Positions 12,594 to 47,530 of a stretch of DNA of 64,000 bases are shown here, piece after piece. A program made the position numbers and the translations under genes. The DNA lies in IMG/VR virus record IMGVR_UViG_3300045988_007243; one strand, given 5' to 3'. Source of the stretch: a virus (taxonomy: Duplodnaviria > Heunggongvirae > Uroviricota > Caudoviricetes). The notes under the pieces were generated by a model. It made no database searches and had not been told where the DNA came from. It worked only from the letters and a program-made list of their open reading frames with translations. The stretch's first letter is position 1, and every line of letters starts with the position of its first letter.

Positions 12594-14210
12594 TCAACGT
12601 CTAAGCCCCTCATATGGGTTTCCTCTCACTAAGTCTGTGTGAGCACCCATTGATGGTGGCTTGAATAATTTAACTTCGTTAAGACTGTTGAAAGCATCAC
12701 TGGTAGCATCCACTTGGTCATCTTTAGTTTTGCCATCACCACAAAAGCCTTCAAGCTCTTGAAAGTAAGCTTCATTCCAACTACCTCTCAAGACTTTTAC
12801 AAGTCCAGCTTCAGAAGCAGCAGAAAATCCCGCAAAGCGGGTAACTTTATCTTTATTTGTTGGTTTAGCTCTTGCTCGATAGCCTTTCTCGGCAAGTTTC
12901 CTGATGAGGGATGTTGCGTAGGATTTACCAGCAGCGCCTGGGTCTTGAGGGATAAAAATACCAGTTCGCTTACCGTCACTTTCAGCAGTCAAATTAATTT
13001 GTGTTTCGACTCCAGAGGGTCTATCTCTAAATCTTACTACATCAATGATATAATAGCAACCGTCTTTTTTAGATTTACCCATCTTAACACCTGCTGTCCA
13101 GTCTGGATTAGGGTTAACCTCAGATGGTAAAGTTGCTGCTAAGTCCCATGCTCTAACATCAAATACATCTTCTGGGAGTGAATCAACAATTTCACACCAT
13201 TGTCTTTGCCAATAGTTTGAACCTTCTGCACGAGCCTTCCAGTTACCGAAACGAAGTCTTGCAACGTTTACAGAAGTGTTGTTTTCAAGCTTACCGCGAT
13301 ACTTTGGTTCTAAGAAGTCAAGAATTGGGTTATCATCAATCGTACCAGAGATGAAGGTGTATGTTTGAGGAATCTCAAGAGGGAACATTTCAAGAATCTT
13401 GTCTCTCTCCCAATCAGAAACCATCACACCATCGTTCATTACATACCAACGAATACGACCACACTTTTCAGGGTCTGGATAACCTTCTTCATCTAAGAAT
13501 GGTTCTACCCAATCATAAATAAAATGGTCTCTGTCTGGGTTCATGGAAATCTTCATGTATGAATCACCTTCAGCACCAGAACGTAGACGGGTTTGTAGGT
13601 ATGAAATCTGTGAAGCAGAGAAGTGTGTACCTTCGTCAAAGTAAATAGCTGAGTATTCAATACCCTGATGACCTTCAGCGTGCTTTTCAAGTTCTAAGTA
13701 GGTGAACTTAATAGTTGCCCCAGAAGGGAATGTGATAGTCATCTTCTGCTCGTGAGGAACCCCACCAAACTTACCAAATAGTTTCTTTGCAGCAGGCCAC
13801 AAACCACCTTGTAACTGTGTTGTATTTCGACGGAAATATACAGCATTATAGTTAGGGTCTTCAATAAACCTTAAAGAGTCCATTAACAATGCGGCAGTTT
13901 TACCAGCACCAGCAGCACCACCATAGAGAACCAAGTCAGCATTAGTATTTAAAAAGACCTCTTGAGAACCCGGTTGAGGGGCTACATAGTTCTTATCAGT
14001 CATCAATTTAAAGATAAGGCGAACTTGGTCTGGTGTGTATCTTAATAAAGTCAGAATTTGAGTTGGAAGGAATTTAGAGGGGTCTTTACCGAATGATTTG
14101 ATAATTTCTTTTACTTCATCAGAAAGCCCCAACTCTCCAGCTAGGACTTTCCTAACATCTTCCACTCGCTTCTGCTTAACAGCATTTAAGTCCATTAAGC
14201 GCCTCCGCAA
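12594..14210 (-). CDS. terminase large subunit
   Basis: 538 aa; Walker A (LYGGAAGAGKT) and Walker B (AIYFDEG) motifs, C-terminal nuclease-like region. Confidence 0.85.
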   Translation of the reverse strand: MRRRLMDLNAVKQKRVEDVRKVLAGELGLSDEVKEIIKSFGKDPSKFLPTQILTLLRYTPDQVRLIFKLMTDKNYVAPQPGSQEVFLNTNADLVLYGGAAGAGKTAALLMDSLRFIEDPNYNAVYFRRNTTQLQGGLWPAAKKLFGKFGGVPHEQKMTITFPSGATIKFTYLELEKHAEGHQGIEYSAIYFDEGTHFSASQISYLQTRLRSGAEGDSYMKISMNPDRDHFIYDWVEPFLDEEGYPDPEKCGRIRWYVMNDGVMVSDWERDKILEMFPLEIPQTYTFISGTIDDNPILDFLEPKYRGKLENNTSVNVARLRFGNWKARAEGSNYWQRQWCEIVDSLPEDVFDVRAWDLAATLPSEVNPNPDWTAGVKMGKSKKDGCYYIIDVVRFRDRPSGVETQINLTAESDGKRTGIFIPQDPGAAGKSYATSLIRKLAEKGYRARAKPTNKDKVTRFAGFSAASEAGLVKVLRGSWNEAYFQELEGFCGDGKTKDDQVDATSDAFNSLNEVKLFKPPSMGAHTDLVRGNPYEGLRR

Positions 14211-14638: not shown

Positions 14639-14714
14639 TTGGAGAATCCGAAGGGACTCGAACCCTTATAAACCTGTTTTGCAGACAGGCACATAGCCAT
14701 TTCTGTCACGGATT
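14639..14714 (-). tRNA. tRNA-Cys (GCA)
   Basis: Hand-folded cloverleaf: CCA encoded, 7-bp acceptor, T-loop ACTCGAA(rc), anticodon loop gives GCA. Confidence 0.7.
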
Positions 14715-14718
14715 CAAA

Positions 14719-14811
14719 TTGGAGGAAGATACCAGACTTGAACTGGTACACCGATTTCTCAGCTACTGGCAGTTTAGCAAACTGCTCCCTTACCTTTTAG
14801 GGTTAATCTTC
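14719..14811 (-). tRNA. tRNA-Ser (GCU), long variable arm
   Basis: Perfect acceptor pairing (ggaagat/atcttcc), canonical T-arm, 21-nt variable arm, anticodon loop gives GCU. Confidence 0.7.
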
Positions 14812-14813
14812 CA

Positions 14814-15548
14814 TTATTTCTGTAATGCGTTCTTCATTTCTGGTGTTGCAATAGCATCAATTACACCAGTTTTACAAGCATCATCAAACCAGTCTGGTAA
14901 GATACCTGCTAAGAACCCATTGATATTCGTTTTAAGGTACTCTGCAATAAGGGCAGCTTCTTCTTCAATCATCTGCACAACTTCATCTGCATAAGCTGTA
15001 ATCTTCGAGATACCTTCATTAATCTTACTAACAGCTTGGTTAGCTAAATCAGAAATAGTATCAAGACCTTTGTCAATAGCGTCTTGTAAATCACTTAATA
15101 CATCATTAACACCGTCTAGTGCACTGTTAATCGTATCAATAGCTTTTTGACCATACTCTGTAGCAACACCCATAATACCACTAAATGGTGTACAGCCAAC
15201 TTGTTCACCTGCTGCACCCATAACATTAGAATAACCTTTTGCTACCTGCATACGTGATGAAAACTCATCAATGGACTTTTGACCGTAATCTGTCAGTGTT
15301 TTGGTAGTTGATGTAGTGCTTGTCAGACTCGTGGTAAAGCTGTTAAGCAGAACTGTTGTAAGTCCAGCAGCAACAAGCTTATCTTTTACTGTAGGGTCTG
15401 ATACAGAACTAATAGAGCTTACAAGTGATGTAGAGGCAGCTACGGTTCCACCGAGAACTGCTGCACCAGTAATAAGGGGGTTAGAAAACCCTTTACCAGT
15501 TTTTAAGAGATTAAAAATCTCCTTACCTTGTTCTGTCATCTCTTTCAT
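14814..15548 (-). CDS. hypothetical protein embedded in tRNA array
   Basis: ORF-track start at 15611 overlaps a tRNA; start moved to internal ATG (MKEMTEQ...) with AAAGG RBS. Confidence 0.4.
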   Translation of the reverse strand: MKEMTEQGKEIFNLLKTGKGFSNPLITGAAVLGGTVAASTSLVSSISSVSDPTVKDKLVAAGLTTVLLNSFTTSLTSTTSTTKTLTDYGQKSIDEFSSRMQVAKGYSNVMGAAGEQVGCTPFSGIMGVATEYGQKAIDTINSALDGVNDVLSDLQDAIDKGLDTISDLANQAVSKINEGISKITAYADEVVQMIEEEAALIAEYLKTNINGFLAGILPDWFDDACKTGVIDAIATPEMKNALQK

Positions 15549-15566
15549 TAAGCACCTTTGAAATTG

Positions 15567-15641
15567 GTAGTCCAGTGGGATTTGAACCCTCTTCTCATGT
15601 TTTTCAGACACGCGCTTTAACCATATAAGCTACTTGGACTA
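15567..15641 (-). tRNA. tRNA-Phe (GAA), tentative
   Basis: Acceptor tagtcca/tggacta pairs perfectly, T-loop ATTTGAA(rc), anticodon loop gives GAA; T-stem and D-arm imperfect. Confidence 0.45.
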
Positions 15642-15646
15642 TAAAT

Positions 15647-15722
15647 TGGGGTGACCTACGGGATTTGAACCCGTATAGACCATGTTCACAGCATGGGTCA
15701 TTACCATTTATGATAAGGCCAC
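15647..15722 (-). tRNA. tRNA-His (GUG)
   Basis: Perfect T-stem and anticodon stem, loop gives GUG, discriminator C73 as expected for His. Confidence 0.65.
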
Positions 15723-15753
15723 ATTTAAGGACTCTCGTAAGAATCCTTAGAAG

Positions 15754-15829
15754 TGGCAGCGGCATAAGGATTTGAACCTTAATAAGACAGCTTCAGAGAC
15801 TGCTGCATTGCCAGTTATGCTATACCGCT
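15754..15829 (-). tRNA. tRNA-Gln (CUG)
   Basis: CCA encoded, canonical T-arm, anticodon stem with two G-U pairs, loop gives CUG. Confidence 0.55.
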
Positions 15830-15834
15830 AAATT

Positions 15835-15913
15835 TGGTACTCCATATCGGATTCGAACCGATACATAACACAGATTTTAAGTCTGGCCTCTCTGCCAATT
15901 GGAGTAATGGAGC
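15835..15913 (-). tRNA. tRNA with Leu anticodon UAA, short variable arm
   Basis: CCA encoded, A73, canonical T-arm, anticodon loop CUUAAAA; only 6-7 nt between T and anticodon arms. Confidence 0.5.
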
Positions 15914-15915
15914 AT

Positions 15916-15991
15916 TGGCGGGGGATGTTGGAATTGAACCAACTTCTTCGATTTCAAAGACCGAGGTTTTAACCTTGTAAACTAATCCCCT
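15916..15991 (-). tRNA. tRNA-Gln (UUG)
   Basis: CCA encoded, perfect T-stem and D-stem, anticodon loop gives UUG; position 1-72 unpaired. Confidence 0.55.
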
Positions 15992-15999
15992 TTAAATCT

Positions 16000-16557
16000 T
16001 TACTTTCTCAGTGGATGAATAAAGAATGCCAACATAACTCTTTCCCTTGAGAATGCTCTTTCTTCTGGGACAACACTTTTTAGTTTCCATCCAATATAAA
16101 TTCTCCAGTAAAATTGTTTACCAAAGATTTTAATTGATGGGATAAAAGCGAATAACCCCCAAGCATTACTGTTCCACATTAGGAGATAACCAGTCTGATT
16201 ATCTTCAGGGTCAGAACTTACGTTGATATTACCTTTCCACTTAGTAACATCTTTTACATCTCTTCCTAATACATGGTAAGAGAAGTTATAAGCTTTGTTT
16301 CTCCAGAGCCATCCGACTCTCTGCATATAGACACCAAGCTTACCAATCTTTCTAATCTTAGCCCATCGTTTGATATGACCTGCATCACCATCAATTGGGT
16401 TGTCATAAGTCTCCATCCATCTGAACCCGAAAGGCAAGTGTCCTTTCTTCTCACTGTAGAATGGAACTACAAAAGGTGCTAAGATAACTGCTAAGATTGC
16501 TGCAAATGGCTCTAACAAAGCTAAGAAAATCCATGAAGCATACTTTAAGTATCTCAT
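16000..16557 (-). CDS. membrane protein (hypothetical)
   Basis: 185 aa, hydrophobic N-terminal segment; lies between tRNA sub-clusters. Confidence 0.4.
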   Translation of the reverse strand: MRYLKYASWIFLALLEPFAAILAVILAPFVVPFYSEKKGHLPFGFRWMETYDNPIDGDAGHIKRWAKIRKIGKLGVYMQRVGWLWRNKAYNFSYHVLGRDVKDVTKWKGNINVSSDPEDNQTGYLLMWNSNAWGLFAFIPSIKIFGKQFYWRIYIGWKLKSVVPEERAFSRERVMLAFFIHPLRK

Positions 16558-16796
16558 TGTCTAATCCTCGTAAGGAGGTAAATGTTATTATTCGTTTCTA
16601 AACCTTCTGGTAAAACTGTCTCAAAAATAACACTCTTCAGATGTCTACCACCAAAACAATCACGTATAAATCTTTCTACTCTAGCGGGGTCACATAAGTA
16701 TCCCACTTTTAAGAAAATGTGGTGTTCAACACCAATGACCCTGACAAACTCAATACTCTCACAGTTTTCATGTTCAACTACTGTTAATGTTTGCAT
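16554..16796 (-). CDS. hypothetical protein
   Basis: 80 aa ORF between tRNA sub-clusters. Confidence 0.35.
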   Translation of the reverse strand: MQTLTVVEHENCESIEFVRVIGVEHHIFLKVGYLCDPARVERFIRDCFGGRHLKSVIFETVLPEGLETNNNIYLLTRIRQ

Positions 16797-16814
16797 AGTA
16801 TCACCTTTTTATCT

Positions 16815-16890
16815 GGCGCAGGATAAGGGATTCGAACCCCTATTAACAGCTTCGTAGACTGTTGCTCTTTCCATTTGAACTAATCCTGCA
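16815..16890 (-). tRNA. tRNA-Arg (ACG)
   Basis: CCA encoded, perfect acceptor pairing gcaggat/atcctgc, anticodon loop gives ACG. Confidence 0.65.
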
Positions 16891-16895
16891 AAATT

Positions 16896-16973
16896 GGTGT
16901 TCCAAGACGGATTCGAACCGTCACTAATACAAGGTTTGAGCTTGCATCCTCTGCCAATTGGGATACTGGAACA
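16896..16973 (-). tRNA. tRNA with Leu anticodon CAA, short variable arm
   Basis: CCA encoded, A73, perfect T-arm, anticodon loop CUCAAAC; scaffold paralogous to 15835-15913 and 17476-17552. Confidence 0.5.
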
Positions 16974-16974
16974 T

Positions 16975-17049
16975 GGTACTCACTAAAGGACTTGAACCTT
17001 TTTCTTCATCTTGTAAGGGTGATGTTTTACCATATAAACTAAGCGAGTA
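16975..17049 (-). tRNA. tRNA-Val (UAC)
   Basis: CCA encoded, perfect T-stem and D-stem, anticodon loop gives UAC (one stem mismatch). Confidence 0.55.
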
Positions 17050-17054
17050 TGAAA

Positions 17055-17141
17055 GAGGTCTGAAGTTGTGCCGCTAACTCAACTCCGTGGAATTTGTTAC
17101 GGTCTTCAGTTGACTCAAAGCGGTCTTTCACTTGACCTCTG
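17055..17141 (-). other. tRNA-sized structured element without canonical T-loop
   Basis: 87-nt interval in a tRNA-sized gap with perfectly paired 7-nt termini (agaggtc/gacctct) and internal ctgaag/cttcag repeat, but no GTTCRANY T-loop. Confidence 0.3.
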
Positions 17142-17145
17142 AATT

Positions 17146-17222
17146 GGTGCTGCTCACAGGACTTGAACCCGCATCTCCATCCTTACAAGGGATGTGTAAT
17201 AGCCAATTATACGAAAGCAGCA
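17146..17222 (-). tRNA. tRNA-Thr (UGU)
   Basis: CCA encoded, perfect anticodon stem catcc/ggatg, loop gives UGU. Confidence 0.6.
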
Positions 17223-17229
17223 TTAATTT

Positions 17230-17304
17230 GGAGCATCCAGAGGGAATCGAACCCTCAACCTCAGTTTGGAAGACTGTAATTTTCCCGTTTAAACTATGGA
17301 TGCA
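17230..17304 (-). tRNA. tRNA-Gly (UCC)
   Basis: Perfect acceptor gcatcca/tggatgc, perfect T-stem, U73, anticodon loop gives UCC. Confidence 0.65.
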
Positions 17305-17310
17305 CTAATT

Positions 17311-17386
17311 GGTGGAGAAGCAGGGAATTGAACCCTGTACTTAAGTTTGCAAAACTTATGTTTTAACCATGTAAACTACATCCCCA
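17311..17386 (-). tRNA. tRNA-Ala (UGC)
   Basis: Perfect T-, anticodon- and D-stems; anticodon UGC; G3-U70 wobble and A73 (Ala identity elements) present. Confidence 0.7.
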
Positions 17387-17392
17387 ATGTTT

Positions 17393-17468
17393 GGTACAGG
17401 TGGAGGGAATTGAACCCATCATCTTACTGATTAAGAGTCAGCCGCATAACCATTTTGCTACACCTGCA
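17393..17468 (-). tRNA. tRNA-Lys (CUU)
   Basis: CCA encoded, anticodon hairpin actga/tcagc with loop giving CUU; scaffold paralogous to 19090-19165. Confidence 0.55.
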
Positions 17469-17475
17469 TTAATTT

Positions 17476-17552
17476 GGTACACCTAGAGAGATTCGAACTC
17501 ACACTGAGCAGATTCTAAGTCTGCTGCCTCTACCAGTTGGGCTATAGGTGCA
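17476..17552 (-). tRNA. tRNA with Leu anticodon UAG, short variable arm
   Basis: CCA encoded, A73, perfect anticodon stem gcaga/tctgc, loop gives UAG; 5-nt variable region. Confidence 0.5.
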
Positions 17553-18005
17553 TTAAATCAAATGTCTTGAGAATTGACTGTGGCAATTTGGACACAAGAA
17601 CCGAAGATTCTCTTTTCTATCATCTAACCAGTTCTCGTTAATGTGGTCAACATCAAGAGTTAGAGGGTTATCCAACCAATACGGTAACTGACCACATTTA
17701 GAGCATTTGTATTCGACACCAGAGGCTATTAAAGCTCTTCTTAGTTGTGAAGACCTAGCTCTTTCACCAGATTCACGTAGAATTAGTATTTCTTCAGGCT
17801 TTCTTTTTGGTACAGTTTTAATCTTACCAGCCTTTTGTCCGAGGAAATGAGAAGTGTCTATTTCAAACTTCTCTATAACACGCTTTAGATGTGACTGAGA
17901 ACCACCTGCTGGTTTTCTCCCAAGCTTAATAAGTACTTCTCTGAATGATACTGAATCCTTTACTAAAGGCTCAAGAATATCTTTAGTCAAACTGCTACGT
18001 GCCAT
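17553..18005 (-). CDS. HNH homing endonuclease
   Basis: 150 aa; C-terminal HNH motif (LDVDHINENWLDDRKENLRFLCPNCH); free-standing inside tRNA array. Confidence 0.75.
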   Translation of the reverse strand: MARSSLTKDILEPLVKDSVSFREVLIKLGRKPAGGSQSHLKRVIEKFEIDTSHFLGQKAGKIKTVPKRKPEEILILRESGERARSSQLRRALIASGVEYKCSKCGQLPYWLDNPLTLDVDHINENWLDDRKENLRFLCPNCHSQFSRHLI

Positions 18006-18097
18006 GTGTCAATCTCCCATTAAACCTTTTTAGAGAACTTCTAAGAACCTAAGCAACAAGGTTCCACAACAAGCTGTAATAACCTTAGAAGCCCTCT

Positions 18098-18122
18098 AAA
18101 AAGACCTAAAAAGGTCTTTGCA
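18098..18122 (-). terminator. possible intrinsic terminator/hairpin
   Basis: AGACC-N5-GGTCT hairpin followed by a short U-tract on the minus strand. Confidence 0.3.
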
Positions 18123-18274
18123 TAGTCTTGTTTAATCTGGTGACTAGAACCTTTGGAGAGCTTGATATTATCTCTTCTCCGTGACACCTACTAGGTGCTT
18201 TATCAGTGTGTACGACAACACGAGGGATAAACCGAAAATGCGAGCAAGCATGGACGGTGTAAAATCTTATTAGG

Positions 18275-18362
18275 CGGTAAGTAAAGGAGTCGAACCCTCA
18301 CCGTATCTCTACAGTGGCAACAGTTTTCAAGACTGTTTGGCTGCCATTAGCCGCTACCTACC
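18275..18362 (-). tRNA. tRNA-Ser (UGA), long variable arm
   Basis: Perfect anticodon stem acagt/actgt, loop gives UGA, 20-nt variable arm; CCA not encoded. Confidence 0.6.
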
Positions 18363-18375
18363 CCTAATAAGACTT

Positions 18376-18458
18376 TGGCATGGGACGGAGGAGTTGAACC
18401 CCTTTGAAACGGTTTTGGAGGCCGTTGCTCATGCCTTAGAGTCTTAACATCGTCCCAT
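18376..18458 (-). tRNA. tRNA, identity unresolved (possibly Trp CCA)
   Basis: CCA encoded, perfect acceptor atgggac/gtcccat, canonical T-loop; internal fold ambiguous, about 7 nt longer than class I. Confidence 0.4.
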
Positions 18459-18601
18459 ACTATAATTCGAAGCTCACCGTATTATCTCAACACTGTAAAG
18501 CCCCTTCTCAGATTATTTACATGTTCTGGAAAACATGAGATACAGACCACCTCCCTACAGGAAGACCCGCTTAGGTCGTCTAAGTAATCTGCTAACTAAA
18601 T

Positions 18602-18683
18602 TGGTCGAGGCGGCAGGACTCGAACCCGCATACTCCACTTACTCGGTTAACGGCGGTTTAGAAGACCGCTGAGATACGCCCCG
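18602..18683 (-). tRNA. atypical tRNA-like gene (anticodon hairpin reads UCU, Arg)
   Basis: CCA encoded, acceptor and T-arm canonical, perfect 5-bp hairpin with loop UCU, but no room for a normal D-arm. Confidence 0.35.
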
Positions 18684-18931
18684 TAATTATCTTTAAAGAC
18701 TCTCTTAGAAAGCCCTTAAAGATGCCCACCTTATTAATCATACCGTGGGCGAGTACGCCAAATTCTTTGATGAGGGATTGGAAGACCTCACTGGTGTTTA
18801 GCCTATCAAGCTACTGCCAGAAAAACATTGTCGTTTGCATTTATTTTAAATTTGCAAAATAGACGCTACGCAACGAAAACTAAGGTTAGTATAAAGTAGT
18901 CACATCTCAATGTCAACAACTTTATTGAAAT

Positions 18932-19007
18932 TGGTACTGGTAGGTGGAATCGAACCACCGATGTTCCCTTATCAGGGGAGTGTTATAACCTTCTTAACTA
19001 TACCAGC
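18932..19007 (-). tRNA. tRNA-Ile (GAU)
   Basis: Perfect T-stem ggtgg/ccacc, perfect D-stem, anticodon loop gives GAU. Confidence 0.6.
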
Positions 19008-19008
19008 T

Positions 19009-19085
19009 TGGAGGTTCAGATGGGAATCGAACCCACATTCATAGGGCTTATGAGACCCTTGCATTACCTTATCTGCGACTGAACC
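19009..19085 (-). tRNA. tRNA-Met (CAU) (or lysidine Ile)
   Basis: Perfect acceptor ggttcag/ctgaacc, anticodon stem with GGG/CCC, loop gives CAU. Confidence 0.6.
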
Positions 19086-19089
19086 ATAT

Positions 19090-19165
19090 TGGTAGAAGTG
19101 GAGGGATTCGAACCCATCGCCTGTCAGATTAAAAGTCTGCCGCATCACCATTCTGCTACACTTCC
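19090..19165 (-). tRNA. tRNA-Lys (UUU)
   Basis: CCA encoded, anticodon loop TTAAAAG(rc) gives UUU. Confidence 0.55.
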
Positions 19166-19170
19166 ATTAA

Positions 19171-19312
19171 ATTATCTTTGTAGATAAGCTACCCAGACTT
19201 GCTTAAGGTCTGTAGCGATGTGCCTTTTTGGGTTTAAATCTAGAATTTACCCTTTCACCCTTTGTGGTCGCATACTCACAGGTAAGCTTAATAACTTATC
19301 TACAAAGATAAT
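19171..19312. repeat. 18-bp perfect inverted repeat pair flanking a 106-bp spacer
   Basis: attatctttgtagataag at 19171-19188 is the exact reverse complement of cttatctacaaagataat at 19295-19312. Confidence 0.6.
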
Positions 19313-19365
19313 TACCAGACCGTTGTTTATCATCTTAAGTGCTACCATTACACCAACTCGACATC

Positions 19366-19390
19366 TGCCGAGTGAAGGAATCGAACCTTC
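19366..19390 (-). pseudogene. tRNA 3' fragment (acceptor + T-arm only)
   Basis: gccgagt + gaagg-AATCGAA-ccttc matches a tRNA 3' half but no matching 5' half follows. Confidence 0.35.
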
Positions 19391-19424
19391 GCCTTTTCTT
19401 TACCGAGAAATAGATTGTTTAAGT

Positions 19425-19452
19425 TTTGCTGTAAACGGTCTTCTGTAAATTT
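19425..19452. repeat. 28-bp repeat tttgctgtaaacggtcttctgtaaattt, copy 1
   Basis: Identical 28-mer at 19993-20020; diverged copies at 19512-19536 and 20161-20187. Confidence 0.6.
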
Positions 19453-19619
19453 GTTGAGCCAGACCAAGTTTTAAATTTTTCAAAATTAAATTGGCTTGAA
19501 ATTTTAAGTAACTTGCTGAATTTGGTCTTCTGCTCCTTTAAAGAATACTCGTAAGAACCCTTTAAGGGAGGGGCTAAATAGCCCTCTCAAAACATCATTT
19601 TGAAATACTTATTATAAGT

Positions 19620-19696
19620 TGGCGGCTACGATGAGACTTGAACTCACATCATCTCCCGTGACAGGGGAGTATTTTCTCCAGTTAAACTACATAGCC
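19620..19696 (-). tRNA. tRNA-Asp (GUC)
   Basis: CCA encoded, perfect anticodon stem ctccc/gggag, loop gives GUC. Confidence 0.65.
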
Positions 19697-19701
19697 TTTA
19701 T

Positions 19702-19789
19702 TGGTGTGCCGTGTAGGAGTCGAACCTACCGAGTCTCAATGACAAGGGATTTACAGTCCCCACCGCTACCATCTACGGGATAACGACAC
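19702..19789 (-). tRNA. tRNA-Tyr (GUA), long variable arm
   Basis: Perfect T-stem, anticodon loop gives GUA, about 15-nt variable arm. Confidence 0.6.
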
Positions 19790-19801
19790 ATTTTAATTTA
19801 T

Positions 19802-19857
19802 ATTCAGGATAAGGACTTGCACCTTACAAATCGGTGAGCAATCGCTTCTCTCCTAAA
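19802..19857 (-). pseudogene. truncated tRNA-like element (56 nt)
   Basis: Acceptor-like ends pair, perfect T-stem taagg/cctta around a mutated T-loop ACTTGCA; too short for a tRNA. Confidence 0.3.
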
Positions 19858-19859
19858 TT

Positions 19860-19936
19860 TGGCGGTTAGTCAGGGATTCGAACCCTGTGCCATTCGCTTA
19901 ACAGGCGACCGCACATACCTTATGTGCTTCCTAACC
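19860..19936 (-). tRNA. tRNA-Asn (GUU)
   Basis: Perfect T-stem caggg/ccctg, D-stem gcac/gtgc, anticodon loop gives GUU. Confidence 0.55.
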
Positions 19937-19992
19937 ATGTTTAGTATTACCAGACCGTATCTTTCAATTTTTTCCGCTAAAAATTTCATTAA

Positions 19993-20020
19993 ATTTGCTG
20001 TAAACGGTCTTCTGTAAATT
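19993..20020. repeat. 28-bp repeat tttgctgtaaacggtcttctgtaaattt, copy 2
   Basis: Identical to 19425-19452; abuts the 3' end of the tRNA at 20020-20096. Confidence 0.6.
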
Positions 20021-20096
20021 TGGAGGCGGGTGAAGGAGTCGAACCTGCCGATACCATGCTAATGAGACATGTGAGACGCCCTTTCTCTATACCCGC
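20020..20096 (-). tRNA. tRNA-Met/Ile2 (CAU), second CAU species
   Basis: CCA encoded, anticodon stem catgc/acatg, loop gives CAU; position 1-72 unpaired. Confidence 0.5.
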
Positions 20097-20188
20097 AATT
20101 CTTAATGACCAGACCAAATCTCTTCTTTGTCCGATTTACCTTCAGATGAATAAGATTAAGTTTGCTGTAATTGGTCTTCTGTCAAAAC

Positions 20189-20266
20189 TGGCGTTCCAGA
20201 AGGGATTTGAACCCTCAAATATCCACTTTGAAAGAGTGGTGACTATACCATTTTGTCTACTGGAAC
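20189..20266 (-). tRNA. tRNA-Glu (UUC)
   Basis: Perfect acceptor gttccag/ctggaac, perfect anticodon stem ccact/agtgg, loop gives UUC. Confidence 0.65.
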
Positions 20267-20273
20267 ATTAATT

Positions 20274-20350
20274 TGGTCTCTGTTGGAGGACTTGAACCTC
20301 CGGCCTTACCGCCCCAAACGGAACGCTCTACCAAGCTGAGCTAAACAGAG
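20274..20350 (-). tRNA. tRNA-Pro (UGG)
   Basis: Perfect acceptor ctctgtt/aacagag, perfect T- and D-stems, anticodon loop gives UGG. Confidence 0.6.
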
Positions 20351-23641: not shown

Positions 23642-24013
23642 ATGAAGGCTAAGAGTGCAAAAGACTTTTATTGCTTCCTACAATCCTATATTAATTCCGT
23701 GGAGAAAGGTGAGAGATATAATCTTAACGATGTTATTGCATCACCTTTAACATGGGGACTTAGCAAATGGCCTGAAGAAGATATTACACCAACTGCCGAA
23801 CAACCTACCTATAAACCAGAAATTAAACTCCCAGATTCAGATAAGTTACTATACCCAATGTTCCACATTGTTGGGCTTGGTACGTTTCTTATGGATATCC
23901 AGTATGTAATTGGTAAGGGCTATAAAGTTGAAGGTATTGTTGTTAGTGATGTGTCTCCACAACATAAAGGCTATTTTAGATTAAACGCACGTTTAGAGGC
24001 TAAAAAGAAATGA
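23642..24013 (+). CDS. hypothetical protein, paralog of N-terminal domain of next gene
   Basis: 123 aa; shares DFY, W-P-E-DI, YKP, F-MD-QY-I-GK pattern with residues 1-120 of the 24010-25143 product. Confidence 0.45.
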   Translation: MKAKSAKDFYCFLQSYINSVEKGERYNLNDVIASPLTWGLSKWPEEDITPTAEQPTYKPEIKLPDSDKLLYPMFHIVGLGTFLMDIQYVIGKGYKVEGIVVSDVSPQHKGYFRLNARLEAKKK

Positions 24014-25143
24014 TTAAAGCAAAGACTTACCCAGACTTCAAAGAATTTGTAAAAGGTTTCGTTGCAAATGTAAAGGCTGGTAAGAGATATGATTTTAGAA
24101 CATATCAAGAAGCTATTTTACCGCTAACCTATAGCTCATATTGGCCTGAAGCTGATATTGCAGAGGTTGCGAAGTTTGACTACAAACCAGACTACAAAGT
24201 TCCTTTTAGTGATGAACTCCTTTACAGTGTTGGTGCACAGATGAGGACTGCTGATTTCTTCATGGATTTACAGTATGCAATCATCAATGGTAAAGACGTT
24301 GACACAGTGTATTGTGAATGGTTGGCAAGAGTTAAGCCGTTCTCAATGTTGAATGCTAAGTTGAAGGATGCTATTAAGCCACCAGCAATTACTCAGCAAC
24401 CAACAGGTCAAACAGTCAATGAGGGTGGCACACTTACTCTAAGCATTCTAGCAACTAACGCCACTGGATATCAGTGGAAGAAGGATGGTGAGGATATCCC
24501 TAGTGCCAATTCTGCAACTTACACAAAACAGTCAGTAGCACCTTCTGACGCTGGTTCATACACTTGTGTTGTATCTGGAGAGGGTGGAACAAGTGTTACC
24601 TCAGATGCAGCAACAGTTACTGTGAACGCACTACCTGTGATTACCAAGCAACCTTCTAATCAGACTATTAATGAAGGTGGAAACATCAACTTAGCAGTTA
24701 CTGCAACAGGTGCGACAGGTTACCAGTGGAAGAAAGATGGCTCTGACATTCCTTCAGCGACAAACGCTACCTATAGCAAGTCTGGTGCTCTGCCAGCAGA
24801 TGCAGGTTCATACACTTGCGTTGTAACAGGTGCAGGTGGTTCTGTTACTTCTAGCCCTGCAACAGTTACTGTGAATGCACTTCCGGTAATCACTCAGCAA
24901 CCAACCAATCAAGAAATCACTGAAGGTGAGACCTTAACACTGAATGTTGTGGCAACAGGTGCGACAGGTTATCAGTGGAAGAAAGGTGAGGAAGTCATCC
25001 CAGATGCAACTGCTGCAACTTACACCAAAGAAGGTGCAACCGCTGCTGATGCAGGAAGCTACACCTGTGTAGTGACTGGCGCAGGTGGCTCTGTAACATC
25101 TAATGCAGCAACAGTTACAGTTAACCCAGCAGGGGAGGCGTAA
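24010..25143 (+). CDS. Ig-like domain protein (three tandem Ig-like repeats)
   Basis: 377 aa; three ~83-aa repeats each with YQWKKDG...DAGSYTCVV...ATVTVN (Ig-like signature). Confidence 0.6.
   Translation: MIKAKTYPDFKEFVKGFVANVKAGKRYDFRTYQEAILPLTYSSYWPEADIAEVAKFDYKPDYKVPFSDELLYSVGAQMRTADFFMDLQYAIINGKDVDTVYCEWLARVKPFSMLNAKLKDAIKPPAITQQPTGQTVNEGGTLTLSILATNATGYQWKKDGEDIPSANSATYTKQSVAPSDAGSYTCVVSGEGGTSVTSDAATVTVNALPVITKQPSNQTINEGGNINLAVTATGATGYQWKKDGSDIPSATNATYSKSGALPADAGSYTCVVTGAGGSVTSSPATVTVNALPVITQQPTNQEITEGETLTLNVVATGATGYQWKKGEEVIPDATAATYTKEGATAADAGSYTCVVTGAGGSVTSNAATVTVNPAGEA
24391..25140 (+). repeat. three tandem ~249-bp coding repeats (Ig-like domains)
   Basis: Units at about 24391-24639, 24640-24885, 24886-25140 with strongly conserved motif blocks. 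Confidence 0.6.
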
Positions 25144-29692: not shown

Positions 29693-30250
29693 GTGATAGA
29701 TATGGAAAAAGATAACTTAAAAGAAGTTGAAGGTAACTACTTAGTACTTGACTGGAATGATATTCGTGGAGCACTCTACGAAGAAAGCCTTAATAGGTTA
29801 GAACAAATTATCTTTGCAGTACGGGGTTACAGAGAGGTTCAAAATGGTAAAGAGCCACTTGAAGGAATCTTTGTAGAGAAGTCTTATCCGTTCTATGAAG
29901 ACACTTTACAGAAAGTTAAAATGTACTTTAGACAGAAGAACCGTAAAGTGGTCACTATGGTATCTCTTGGTGGACAGAATATGTCTGTGATGGAAGATAT
30001 TAATCCTAAGAGACCGAGTAAAGGTATCTGTATAAAAATCACAGGACATGAAGAGTATATCTCAGTGGATGATTTTAGTTCATTCTGTAATGGCTCTTGT
30101 GTCTTTAATGGTTTTCACTATGATATCCGAGTGTACCCAATCAAGGGAGATGATATCATGATGCAGGTATTTGATAACAACAACGGCTTTACTCATTTTT
30201 ATCAGACAACCAAGTCATCACTAAAAACAGTTCTGGAAACACTGATTTAA
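29693..30250 (+). CDS. hypothetical protein
   Basis: 185 aa ORF, last of plus-strand block. Confidence 0.4.
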   Translation: MIDMEKDNLKEVEGNYLVLDWNDIRGALYEESLNRLEQIIFAVRGYREVQNGKEPLEGIFVEKSYPFYEDTLQKVKMYFRQKNRKVVTMVSLGGQNMSVMEDINPKRPSKGICIKITGHEEYISVDDFSSFCNGSCVFNGFHYDIRVYPIKGDDIMMQVFDNNNGFTHFYQTTKSSLKTVLETLI

Positions 30251-30260
30251 AATATCTTAA

Positions 30261-30293
30261 GAGCCTCCTTAATTGGGGGCTTTTTTAATTTTT
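30261..30293 (+). terminator. intrinsic terminator ending plus-strand block
   Basis: gagcctcc-ttaatt-gggggc hairpin followed by TTTTTTAATTTTT. Confidence 0.55.
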
Positions 30294-31960
30294 ATAAAAT
30301 TTTATCGGTTGTCCCAACCTCTGGGTCACCATCATATGTGAATAAAATATCTATCCTTCTTAGCAACCTTCTTAATCTTACTCTCTATATAGTTATATAG
30401 TACTATATAGTATCTTAGTAACTATCTAGTGGTCTTAATAGCCCTCTGTATAACCCTTCTAACAAGCCCTCTAACAAACCTTCTTAACAACCTATACAAT
30501 CACCTTAACCATCTCTCTACACCTTCTTAGAAGCCCCTATACACCTCTTAATCTCTATGTCAGCTATGATACCCTCTATAGGTGTTCACTAGGAAATACT
30601 AAGCCTCTATATAGACTGTTTTAACAAACTTAACAGGAATATCTTTACAGACCTTATCTCACAAGGTCTAACACGGTACTAACAAGGTATCTTATAAGCC
30701 TGTTTATGCCTGTATTTTTAAAAGACTGTATAGGTAATTATTCAGAATTTTAAAATTTTTATAAAATAGGACTATCAAGTCATTTTTTAGGGTCTTTGAA
30801 GGGACTCAAAAATATCTGATTAGGGTGTATATCTGCTTGGTAGCCCTTAACAGCTCCCTTACAAGTACTTTGCAAAATTTTAAAATATCCTTAACAATCT
30901 CTTAACAGTTCTCACATCTTCTTAACAACTCTTCAAAGGTCTTAACAGATTCTTAACAGAACTAACAAGGCTGTAACAGTTTCTTAACAGTTGATACATA
31001 GGCTTTACAGAATCTTAACAGATGACTAATAAGAGCTAACAGGGATTGGTAGATGATTCGGATGAAGCATCCTCATAACAATACCAATTAGTTAATTTTA
31101 AAGAGTTATTTTGTTAAGATAATTAACAAGTTTCTAACAAGTATTTAATCTTTTTAACAAGCTATTAACATGGTCACTACTCTTTTCTTATCGTTCCCTC
31201 TCCCTCTTAGTGATTCTCTAAACATACCTCTTAAAAGCTCTCTATAGCTCTTTATAAGCCCTTTTAAGCCTCTTCCTAGTAATTACACCCCAACTGTACA
31301 GACACCTTTTTATAGAGCTTTACAGGAGCTTTTAAGGCTATGTCAAAGACTCTTACAAGGCTTTTACGTGGTTTTAACAGAGATTTAACAAGGGGCTAAC
31401 AAGTTGCTAACAAGTGCCTTAAAAGCATAACTATGTAGGGATTGTTAAGAATTTGTTAAGAAAATGTTAAGGGGGCTAGCATTTACGTAACTTTATAGCT
31501 TCTTTTACGTAACTTTGAAGCAACTTTATAGCCCCTATAACATACTTTTAAGACACTAACAATAGGATTCGATAGATTCCTATCTCATAGCCCTTTTTAG
31601 TAGTTCACAAGAATACTAACGAGATAATAAAGCTTATAACCTTATAAGATTCTTTTAAGCCTCTATAAAGCCCTGTAAAGAGCTTTTTAGGGTGAGTTAA
31701 TGCAATCCCTTAAGTTATATTGATAAGGCTGTTATAGAGCTTTATAGAGCGTTTTAGTGGTTGCCCTTCCCTTTCGGGTTATGGGCTTATATTTAAGTTG
31801 ATTTGATAAGAGGTTATAGAGTAAACTATAGAGTTATTGCTTTTAAGGTATGGGATAGATTCTGGAAAGGAAAGGGAAAGGATTGTATAGGGATTCGATA
31901 AGACGTAAAAAAGCCCCTATGAGAAGGAGCTTTGAAGGTATCTGGGGCTATTTAGCCCCG
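30290..31960. repeat. ORF-free region dense in TTAACA(A/G) iteron-like motifs
   Basis: No ORF of 60 aa or more on either strand over about 1.7 kb; dozens of TTAACA(A/G) in both orientations, including phased arrays. Confidence 0.6.
31375..31475. promoter_or_regulatory. convergent 11-bp-phased iteron arrays (candidate origin/operator)
   Basis: Four direct (T/C)TAACA units at exact 11-bp spacing (31375-31418), then three inverted TGTTAAG units at 11-bp spacing (31443-31475). Confidence 0.45.
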
Positions 31961-31969
31961 TTGCGTCGA

Positions 31970-32218
31970 TTAGTTGTAACCTTGTTTATTGTAGTACAGT
32001 GAGATAATCAAGTCACCCCAGTAATGATAGTGATGCTCGTCGTTTAATGCCTCTTTTACAGCGTCTTTCCAGAAGTCATCAGTAGGGTTATAATCTGGGA
32101 TAACTTGCTTGATAACTGTCTTCACTAATGAAAAACACTCATCAGTTCCACCAATATCAAATTTAACGTCCAGAGTATAACAGCCATAAGCATTGACAGT
32201 TGCGCGGATAGTTGCCAT
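31970..32218 (-). CDS. small hypothetical protein (cassette gene 1)
   Basis: 82 aa; start preceded by conserved TAAACTAGGAGATTCAAAA leader. Confidence 0.5.
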   Translation of the reverse strand: MATIRATVNAYGCYTLDVKFDIGGTDECFSLVKTVIKQVIPDYNPTDDFWKDAVKEALNDEHHYHYWGDLIISLYYNKQGYN

Positions 32219-45748: not shown

Positions 45749-47530
45749 TTAAAGCTGCTTGTCAATATTATTTCGAATATCACCAAGAGTTGTGTAACCG
45801 AACTGCTCAGAGTCACTAAAGACTAAACGTAAAGCACAAGCTGGGTGGTCAAGTACATCTGCAAAACTCTGGAATCCATAGCCATCTACAGCTTTCAGCT
45901 TATCACCATCCCACATAGGTGCTACACCACCAAAGGCAGATTTCTTAACACCACTATCTGTTTTAGGGTCTTTTGCAAGCATAATCTCTTTACCACCAAT
46001 GCTTGCCAGAGTTGCTTTGACAGCAAATGCAAAGGTGTCACGAGTCATGTACTGGTAAGTGTAAGAACCTACACCAAACACTACGTTAGAGCTTGCAAAA
46101 CCCATTTCATACAAACGCTTCAGTATTTCGTTTGCACGTTCCAACGTGATAGAGTCGCCATAAATAAGCCCGATATGCTCATCCAGTACTTTAAAACCTT
46201 TAGAGTTGATAGTTCCCCCAAAGATGTTATACAGTGTCTTGATAGCTCCATCAATCTCCGCTACAGGACGTGTTACAACGTTTGCAGAACCAACCATATA
46301 AGCATTTTTCAACAGCACTGTATCAGCAACTTCAAAGTCTTCTCTGTCAACAACCATTTCGTAGCCTTCTGACAGTAGCCATCCAGCAATACCATAGTTG
46401 ATGTTTTCAAGCTTCATGTTCAGAACAGCATTCAACATTGTGTCGCTGGCTTCCAGCTTGCTTAAGTGTTCGTAATAAGCCTTTTTAGCACACTCTAAAT
46501 GGATTGCTTTGTATCCTGTGACAATATGTACAGGGTCTCCAGAGTCAGGGCGAATTACCAGTTTACCATCACGTTCCATAATTTCTTTACGGAGTGCTGG
46601 TAAGATTTCTGACACAGTTCTCCAGAAGTTATAAGTATCTGAAACAATACTTGCAATACCAGTTGGGTAAGTTTCTGTTAAGAAACGACGGAAGGTTTGT
46701 AACTCACCTTTAAAGCGTCTTTCTTCTTCAATCAACTCATTACCACCTTCCCAAGCAATGTTTGCACACATTACAGAGTGCTCAGTGGCTGGTACAGAAC
46801 TACCAATATCAGAGATTAGGTAAGACTGACCATAGATTCGTTTAGCCGTGTATACAGCAGGGAAACTATCAGTTCCTTTAAAGCTGGTTAAGTGACCTAC
46901 AGCATTAAATGCGTCATCAGTAAAGCCGGACATACCACGCATAGCAAAGTCATGGCACTGATAAGGCAAATGTAAGTCGTTGTCACAAGTAAGGTCAGAC
47001 CACTTCTTACAGATACGTTTGTAGTGCAATGCAATAGTTGCAATGGTACAAGCCTTCCAAATCTCAGCAGAGAAAGCATCTTCCAGATATCCCGCTACCC
47101 AATGGAAACCTGAAACAGTGTTCTGGAAGACAATCATTGGTACACGCATAGGAACAACTGTGCCTTCTTCTACAGCGTAGACTTCAACTGGTAGATAACC
47201 TAAGTCGTGGAGTGCTTCCCAATGTTCTCGACCAATAGCATCTTTGCCCAGAACACCGTTCATGATTTCTAAGATTTCGTCAATTGCTTCTTTTTTGTCA
47301 CGTTCAAAGAAAGTGGCGTTCCAGTGGTCTATCAAGTAATCTTTAACGAAACGTTGAATACCAAAAGCTACTACACCATCAATTGCTAAAGGGCTGTTAA
47401 ACCATTTATCGCTACGTGGTGTCAGGTTCAGCATAAGGTACTGTGTGGCATCTGGATACTGATATATATGTGATGCCTTGTAAGCATCTGCGTTTAAACC
47501 TGCTGGTACTGCATAAAGTGATTTAGTCAT
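45749..47530 (-). CDS. nicotinamide phosphoribosyltransferase family protein (NAMPT/NadV or Namat-like)
   Basis: 593 aa; NAMPT-family signature incl. HDFAMRGMSGF...GHLTSFKGTDS. Confidence 0.75.
   Translation of the reverse strand: MTKSLYAVPAGLNADAYKASHIYQYPDATQYLMLNLTPRSDKWFNSPLAIDGVVAFGIQRFVKDYLIDHWNATFFERDKKEAIDEILEIMNGVLGKDAIGREHWEALHDLGYLPVEVYAVEEGTVVPMRVPMIVFQNTVSGFHWVAGYLEDAFSAEIWKACTIATIALHYKRICKKWSDLTCDNDLHLPYQCHDFAMRGMSGFTDDAFNAVGHLTSFKGTDSFPAVYTAKRIYGQSYLISDIGSSVPATEHSVMCANIAWEGGNELIEEERRFKGELQTFRRFLTETYPTGIASIVSDTYNFWRTVSEILPALRKEIMERDGKLVIRPDSGDPVHIVTGYKAIHLECAKKAYYEHLSKLEASDTMLNAVLNMKLENINYGIAGWLLSEGYEMVVDREDFEVADTVLLKNAYMVGSANVVTRPVAEIDGAIKTLYNIFGGTINSKGFKVLDEHIGLIYGDSITLERANEILKRLYEMGFASSNVVFGVGSYTYQYMTRDTFAFAVKATLASIGGKEIMLAKDPKTDSGVKKSAFGGVAPMWDGDKLKAVDGYGFQSFADVLDHPACALRLVFSDSEQFGYTTLGDIRNNIDKQL

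Follow-up and report, generated by a model that had tools for sequence, protein, structure and literature searches.

Why would a tailed phage leave 1.7 kb of its genome without genes and fill it with short, closely spaced repeats? The question is raised by positions 30290-31960 (the block) of a 64,000-nucleotide stretch of viral DNA, IMG/VR record IMGVR_UViG_3300045988_007243, which was analysed over its full length and is referred to below as the window. An earlier note, made from the sequence alone, had described the block as free of open reading frames (ORFs) and saturated with TTAACA-type repeats, and had proposed an iteron origin or an operator bound cooperatively by a protein. The block matches 257 phage records with 80-93% identity, nearly all of them Felixounavirus phages of Escherichia, Salmonella and Shigella, and the window, judged by its sequence, is a Felixounavirus genome, i.e., that of a Felix O1-like myovirus. 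Comparison with these relatives indicates that the block is very probably the genome-terminus region, the junction between units of a concatemer, and that its central 638 bp are the direct terminal repeat (DTR). This identity escaped the earlier note, as did the fact that its convergent arrays abut one boundary of the DTR.

The central 638 bp correspond to the terminal repeats of relatives

In the window, which is a circularly closed assembly, the following element occurs once:

30839-31476, no strand assigned: DTR, 638 bp, placed by homology to the terminal repeats of relatives

By the same homology, the DTR would be present twice in virion DNA and once per unit in replicating concatemers. 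In SeKF_63 (Canada) and ZX4221 (China), the homologous segment is an exact repeat found at both ends of the record, with a length of 613 bp and 591 bp, respectively. Both records start with GCCCCCTTAACA, which corresponds to window position 31476 read on the minus strand, and finish with TTAAGGGCTACC, which corresponds to window position 30839; the record of I14.1, whose termini were set by PhageTerm, also begins at the base homologous to 31476. These records point to fixed termini, with three beginning at the homologue of 31476 and two finishing at the homologue of 30839. The GenBank record of UAB_69 (OL656108) carries a 'DTR' feature of 618 bp that coincides by alignment with window positions 30837-31478, and the two repeats align over their whole length at 88% identity, with boundaries within 2 nt. 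For UAB_Phi87, a sister phage of UAB_69, Bal31 digestion and run-off sequencing gave fixed ends and a 608-bp DTR (Bardina et al. 2016, PMC4837284). The end nucleotides differ by method, the UAB_69 feature being 2 nt wider per side than the ends of SeKF_63, ZX4221 and I14.1; against the 608 bp given in the UAB_Phi87 paper, the homologous span measures 618 bp.

By homology, the DTRs of UAB_Phi87, UAB_69 and the Kolesnikvirus phage SPARTY lie at this very locus. In SPARTY, a DTR of 439 bp was defined by PhageTerm and classed as 'DTR, T7-like' (PMC8928762); we confirmed it as an exact terminal repeat, which, apart from its TTAACA sites, is barely alignable to the DTR of the window. The record of Erwinia phage Hena2 begins a single base away from the homologue of the left terminus; homology of the boundary word predicted a DTR of 438 bp for it, a value matched by the published 439 bp of SPARTY. 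The distances from the boundaries to conserved internal motifs are equal in SeKF_63, SPARTY and, with its inferred ends, the window, i.e., in two genera. A palindromic insertion of small size at 31042-31089 makes the DTR of the window, at 638 bp, longer than in relatives; the 12 Felixounavirus and Mooglevirus genomes compared here for conservation and phase have DTRs of 570-659 bp.

Publications and annotations have already established that Felix O1-like phages have a DTR, and where it lies. These reports give the length and position of the repeat only; the TTAACA arrays, their phasing and their register are absent from the literature searched. Searches of the Felix O1, VpaE1, UAB_Phi87, Danish wastewater and PhageMaP/Bas63 papers turned up no earlier account of the arrays, of a phasing of about 10.5 bp or of a register to the cut sites. 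The array architecture thus appears undescribed and adds a new descriptive detail to a known DTR.

Gene content and repeat enrichment of the block

The block is flanked by a plus-strand gene ending at 30250 and a minus-strand gene ending at 31970. Its longest ORF has 39 codons' worth of amino acids (39 aa, 31883-32002) and the remainder reach at most 33 aa, in agreement with the claim of an ORF-free region. GenBank annotators call differing tiny ORFs in the block of different genomes, and indels of 1, 2, 11, 13, 26 and 42 bp among relatives speak against a conserved reading frame. Autocorrelation found no 3-bp periodicity in the block, and a tRNA scan found no tRNA there.

The saturation with TTAACA-type repeats is evident from counts. 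The word TAACA(A/G) occurs 30 times in 30290-31960 (26 on the plus and 4 on the minus strand) versus 99 times in the other 62.3 kb, corresponding to 18.0 and 1.59 per kb, an 11.3-fold difference; CTTAACA and TATAGAG are enriched 22.7-fold and 33.9-fold in the block. The excess is local, because the count over the whole window is at chance (129 versus 120.7 +/- 11.2). Of the 34 TAACA sites, 24 lie inside the DTR, 20 of them in one orientation. Within the DTR, the sites and the insertion that interrupts them are arranged as follows:

30847-31042, plus strand: array A, 11 (C/T)TAACA(A/G) sites in a single orientation, the first 9 nt from the terminus
31042-31089, no strand assigned: palindromic insertion GGGATTGGTA...TACCAATT, the only copy in the window, here with an additional 26-bp insert
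31112-31171, plus strand: middle cluster of one inverted and four direct TAACA sites, with spacings of 12, 11, 20 and 11 bp, nearly unvarying in two genera
31374-31413, plus strand: direct array of four TAACA(A/G) sites in exact 11-bp steps
31443-31476, minus strand: inverted array of three TGTTAAG sites in 11-bp steps, finishing at the DTR boundary

Both short arrays near the boundary at 31476 are as the earlier note had read them, with plus-strand TAACA starts at 31375, 31386, 31397 and 31408, and TGTTA starts at 31443, 31454 and 31465. Its count of at least eight CTTAACA(A/G) copies in 30880-31030 needs correction: seven copies are exact, and two further ones are one-base variants (CTAACAAG and TGTAACAG).

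As far as alignments tell, the insertion at 31042-31089 acts like a very small mobile element or hairpin-type indel. The element measures 22 bp in UAB_69 and IME338, is absent, shorter or found at other positions or orientations in relatives (e.g., Tribble, IME338 and L27), and its 26-bp insert holds a palindrome of its own, GGATGAAGCATCC.

Phasing of the sites and their register to the termini

A periodicity check of the kind proposed in the earlier note showed that base autocorrelation across the whole block has maxima at lags 10-12, 20-22 and 31-32. For the central 638 bp, the value at lag 11 is 0.44 against a baseline of 0.276 +/- 0.017, and two coding control regions show autocorrelation only at codon-related lags (multiples of three). 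Neighbouring TAACA sites are spaced by 9, 11, 20, 21 or 31 bp. The 20 plus-strand sites fit best to a period of 10.55 bp, with a resultant R = 0.74 across 560 bp, a value reached by none of 2000 random placements. A global period of 11 bp was rejected (R = 0.34 versus 0.74 at 10.55 bp). The 11-bp spacing noted earlier is that of the local arrays, not the long-range period. Array A taken by itself has a best-fit period of 10.40 bp and R = 0.89, again with none of 2000 random placements as good, and across the 12 genomes its period ranges from 10.40 to 10.55 bp and its R from 0.84 to 0.90.

All 12 genomes are phase-coherent, with periods of 10.2-10.55 bp and R values of 0.72-0.81 in DTRs of 570-659 bp. 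A coherent period in this range keeps the sites on a single face of B-form DNA for about 50 turns of the helix. The number of TAACA sites is likewise kept (22-31 forward and 5-7 reverse per genome), and the phase has survived many indels. Core columns of TAACA in the DTR are 0.93 conserved versus 0.78 for the other DTR columns, a difference reached in none of 2000 permutations, and conservation falls directly on either side of the core. Outside Felixounavirus, the block is alignable in Mooglevirus at about 73% identity; in the Erwinia Kolesnikvirus phages, the alignable part shrinks to 85 bp, which is the TTAACA array itself. Judging from core conservation and from the phase kept in these genomes, the repeats have the look of genuine sites for a protein, aligned on one helix face.

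The sites also keep a register to both termini. Reading inward from the left end (31476 in the window), TTAACA-type sites start at +7, +18 and +29 in the window, SeKF_63, ZX4221 and SPARTY. Reading inward from the right end (30839 in the window), the Felixounavirus starts are 9, 20, 53 and 64, and those of SPARTY 20, 42 and 64; every one of them satisfies 9+11k. The word TTTGCAAAAT occupies +31-40 at the inferred end of the window and in SeKF_63 and SPARTY, and ZX4221 has the one-base variant TTTGCAGAAT.

Directly outside the DTR, the following word marks the boundary:

30826-30838, no strand assigned: 13-bp word TGTATATCTGCTT, reverse complement AAGCAGATATACA, directly outside the DTR boundary

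The word TGTATATCTGCTT is unvarying in 12 of 12 Felixounavirus and Mooglevirus sequences and occurs once in the window. Its reverse complement occupies the same DTR-adjacent place in the Kolesnikvirus phages SPARTY and Hena2, so that it is unvarying in three genera. Both boundaries, read inward, show GCCC(CC)TTAACA, a symmetry that would suit one enzyme working in opposite orientations, although it is suggestive only. A symmetric nick site at the boundary inverted repeat TGSTAGCCC(CC)TTAACA was considered and downgraded, as the cuts lie asymmetrically within it, with an offset of 4 nt, and the repeat units often contain AGCCCT.

A possible role of the arrays in terminus recognition and packaging

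The explanation we favour overall, with somewhat more confidence than doubt, is that of a terminal region in which the arrays act as a platform for positioning the terminase, a function also proposed for the DTR of T7. The arrays themselves may well serve terminus recognition and packaging, a role with indirect support from the conserved register of the sites to both cuts and from the conservation of cores over spacers. Under such a scheme, the roughly 20 co-oriented TTAACA(A/G) sites would form a binding platform for an oligomeric phage DNA-binding protein, the candidates for which are a small terminase subunit that has so far escaped recognition, or else some accessory factor. The bound protein would mark the concatemer junction and position the T4-type large terminase TerL (encoded at 12594-14210) to cut at both boundaries, and the single junction copy would be doubled through staggered nicking of opposite strands, with fill-in synthesis to follow, as for T7, from which the staggered-nick model of terminal-repeat duplication comes. 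A more specific version, in which the DTR is a nucleoprotein scaffold, is doubtful: a filament or wrapped complex of an unrecognised protein would serve as a molecular ruler for the terminase nicking each strand, and such a complex could have further roles in end protection or in replication priming at the ends. Packaging and terminus recognition explain more of the data than an origin or operator role does.

Several points weigh against a platform for the terminase. A small terminase or other binder was not recognised; the 66-aa ORF upstream of the TerL gene falls in a PHROG without assigned function, and a PDB search returned no relative of it. About 10 TAACA sites, together with the words TATAGAG, CTTTTAAG and TTTACGTAAC, lie outside the DTR and are left unexplained. 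The termini of this phage are placed by homology only, and the boundary inverted repeat may be incidental, given the 4-nt cut offset and the commonness of AGCCC(T). The phase is weaker in SPARTY, with a best period of 11.45 bp (R = 0.68, p = 0.0135), and the genomes compared are related, hence not independent tests. As for the neighbouring genes, Pfam and PHROGs searches found no domains in the ten flanking proteins, all of which fall in families of unknown function, and PDB sequence searches with the two ORFs bordering the block gave chance-level matches only.

Origin, operator and other readings of the block

The reading closest to the earlier note would make the arrays the iterons of a phage origin, bound by an initiator beside the AT-rich segment at about 30715-30790, or an end-located complex promoting replication like that of phi29 p6. 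Many phased direct repeats with conserved cores would fit such an origin, as would the placement of the AT-rich segment, which is unvarying and lies 50-120 bp from array A, and the non-coding setting, a typical place for phage origins. Moreover, a DnaA-box-like match, TTATTCACA (30337-30345, minus strand), overlaps the word TGGGTCACCAT(C/G)ATATGTGA at 30320-30345, which stands outside the DTR and is unvarying across genera. This match is the single one in the block, however, and the window as a whole has no more DnaA boxes than chance would give (8 versus 11.8 expected). The cumulative GC skew, put forward in the earlier note as a check, has a local maximum at the block and a local minimum near 22 kb, and merely tracks gene orientation. 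The 10 neighbouring proteins include no initiator-like or DNA-binding domain, the core of 6-8 bp at a spacing of about 10.5 bp differs from the usual iteron of 17-22 bp, and an origin does not predict a conserved register of the sites to the cut sites. We retain from the earlier proposal that the repeats look like protein sites on one helix face and find no support for the iteron origin in these checks; a role in replication is unlikely. A purely neutral history, with an 11-bp unit multiplied by slippage or amplification where coding constraint is lacking, would account for a block made throughout of diverged 10-12-bp units and for its frequent indels and small palindromic insertions. Against it stand the alignability of the block across genera, the conservation of cores over spacers, and the maintenance of site number, phase and terminus register, which make the absence of any function very improbable indeed.

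A transcriptional role is also quite improbable. The sites would then be operators or decoys for a regulator or for the host RNA polymerase, or the flanks would encode small non-coding RNAs transcribed from TTGATAAG...TATAGA units. In favour of this, TCTTAACA is one base off the extended -35 element TCTTGACA, the block holds 12 sigma-70-like matches versus 6.0 +/- 2.6 in shuffles, several of them with TTAACA as the -35 hexamer, and two unvarying TTGATA-N17/18-TATAGA units (31721 and 31805) are accompanied by a hairpin with a compensatory change in phage ASO1A. The promoter-like matches are all weak, however, agreeing at 9 of 12 positions and having no good -10 hexamer. TAACA(A/G) is not a general promoter or operator word, because it shows no excess in the rest of the window, and nothing downstream needs regulating, because both neighbouring gene sets point into the block and stop at terminators. 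RNA folding of the right flank is no better than that of shuffles (z = -0.34), and Rfam, searched at gathering thresholds over the whole window and at E <= 1 over the block, returned only tRNAs and sub-threshold matches on the terminator at 30259-30284, with no family match in the block. Single-stranded DNA folding around the right boundary is modest (z = -2.19). Some other function of the genome ends is about as improbable as a transcriptional one: the arrays might bind a protein that shields the injected linear ends from RecBCD or controls DNA ejection. A role in ejection control has been proposed for the repeat-rich injection-stop region of T5. Sites reading inward from both physical ends in a fixed register would fit, and the PhageMaP paper notes that the Felixounavirus phage Bas63 has no RecBCD inhibitor; yet no candidate protein is at hand, and no prediction separates such a role from terminase recognition in the present data.

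Comparison with known terminal and repeat-bound systems

The closest architectural analogue of the block is the terminal region of T7, the 160-bp terminal repeat of which reportedly has arrays of a CCTAAAG heptamer inside and beside it. Both systems combine a short exact DTR, an ORF-free junction and a short word repeated in one orientation. Here, however, the phage is a myovirus with a T4-type TerL, the motif is another one and the DTR is four times longer, and whereas T7 has early promoters beside its repeat, both gene sets point into the region in the present genome.

The R1-R3 sites of lambda cosB and the pacL and pacR boxes of SPP1 are sites of the small terminase, numbering 3-7 over about 100-200 bp and serving a single cut. 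They resemble the present arrays in that several short phased sites stand beside a cleavage site and are thought to be bound by an oligomeric DNA-binding subunit. They differ in that about 20 sites are spread here over roughly 560 bp between two cuts, with no small subunit recognised. In architecture only, a likeness also exists to parC of plasmid R1, with ten 11-bp iterons bound cooperatively by ParR, and to the phi29 p6 complex at genome ends: many short repeats about one helical turn apart form a one-face or superhelical nucleoprotein array. Neither a ParR/ParM nor a p6 homologue is evident, in contrast to those systems, and here the phage is lytic with terminase-cut ends.

How terminases of DTR phages find and duplicate the ends is poorly understood outside T7, and for binding experiments and mutagenesis the conserved array, on one helix face and in register with both cuts, is a tractable substrate. 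If true, the ruler scaffold would give a concrete, testable model of end recognition for DTR phages outside the T7 group. Typing of Salmonella, biocontrol and therapy all make wide use of Felix O1-like phages, whose genomes have been deposited by the hundred with arbitrary starts; the landmarks at the termini (TA/GCC... and ...CC/AAGCAGATATACA, the slash standing at the terminus) would allow consistent genome orientation and DTR annotation. Phage engineering should leave the array region undisturbed.

Flanks and terminators around the terminal repeat

Seen in virion orientation, the gene sets on either side are directed outward, to the ends of the genome. Between the DTR and the terminators of these sets lie two flanks devoid of ORFs:

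30259-30292, plus strand: intrinsic terminator with a 10-bp stem, a 6-nt loop and a T-run, ending the plus-strand gene set that finishes at 30250
30290-30838, no strand assigned: unique ORF-free flank with tandem and direct-repeat families, mean conservation 0.88 in the 12 genomes
31477-31960, no strand assigned: second unique ORF-free flank, beyond the 31476 boundary of the DTR, from repeat and alignment analysis
31906-31959, minus strand: terminator hairpins ending the minus-strand gene set that finishes at 31970, read from the sequence

The terminator that the earlier note had placed ahead of the block is indeed present as a hairpin and T-run at 30259-30284, and phage ASO1A has a terminator annotated at the site homologous to 30259-30292. 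On the minus strand, the terminators consist of GCTCCTTCTCATAGGGGC, then TTTTTT, then GGGGCTAAATAGCCCC, and a terminator is annotated at the homologous site in ASO1A, Tribble and Michonne.

The flank at 30290-30838 contains CTATATAGTA repeats (30385-30430), 12-bp CCTTCTAACAA units (30455-30490), more TAACA sites (30622-30685) and the conserved AT-rich stretch at about 30715-30790. The flank at 31477-31960 contains TTTACGTAAC units of 11 or 22 bp at 31482-31527 and two unvarying units of the form TTGATAAG...TATAGAG...TATAGAG, at 31721-31752 and 31805-31836. The latter resemble sigma-70 promoters (TTGATA, 17-18 nt, TATAGA) aimed at the end of the minus-strand gene. Between them lies a conserved hairpin (about 31763-31790) in which ASO1A shows the compensatory change from GCCC...GGGC to GCCA...TGGC. 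The stretch 31721-31836 might give rise to a short transcript or act as a further module for protein binding. A long-range pairing of CCCTTCCCTTTC with GGAAAGGAAAGGG was rejected, as it is not conserved and its second arm is deleted in Mooglevirus.

A further hairpin indel element, AGGATTCGATAGATTCCTATCTCATAG, lies at 31564-31590 as one copy in the window and is present in some Felixounavirus genomes and absent from others. It is inverted and found about 300 bp away in IME338, SP3 and L27, and adjoins the terminator in Michonne.

Genome context and other observations

The rest of the window fits the Felix O1-like group. ARAGORN found 25 tRNA genes clustered at 14640-20350, and proteins in keeping with the group include a T4-type large terminase, a Mu-type portal, a tape-measure protein, a ribonucleotide reductase and a NAMPT homologue. 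TerL (12594-14210) has Terminase_6N/6C domains and matches phrog_979, and the terminase tree of Bardina et al. (PMC4837284) places Felix O1-like TerL in a DTR cluster.

Within the tRNA cluster, a weak Rfam tRNA match of 31.7 bits at 18605-18683 on the minus strand is not among the 25 tRNAs of ARAGORN and may be a degenerate or unusual tRNA. The cluster also contains a 265-aa ORF at 14814-15611, whose 5' end overlaps tRNA-Phe (15565-15640); it belongs to phrog_2114 (unknown function), with a weaker likeness to tape-measure-like and 'GTP-binding domain' families. In the plus-strand gene set upstream of the block, positions 24010-25143 encode a 377-aa protein with three immunoglobulin-like domains (Ig_3, Ig_2 and I-set). 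The NAMPT homologue, a nicotinamide phosphoribosyltransferase (NAMPT/NAPRTase), is encoded by the ORF at 45749-47530; according to the PhageMaP paper, genes 79 and 80 of Bas63 reconstitute NAD+ and counter defence systems such as Sir2-HerA.

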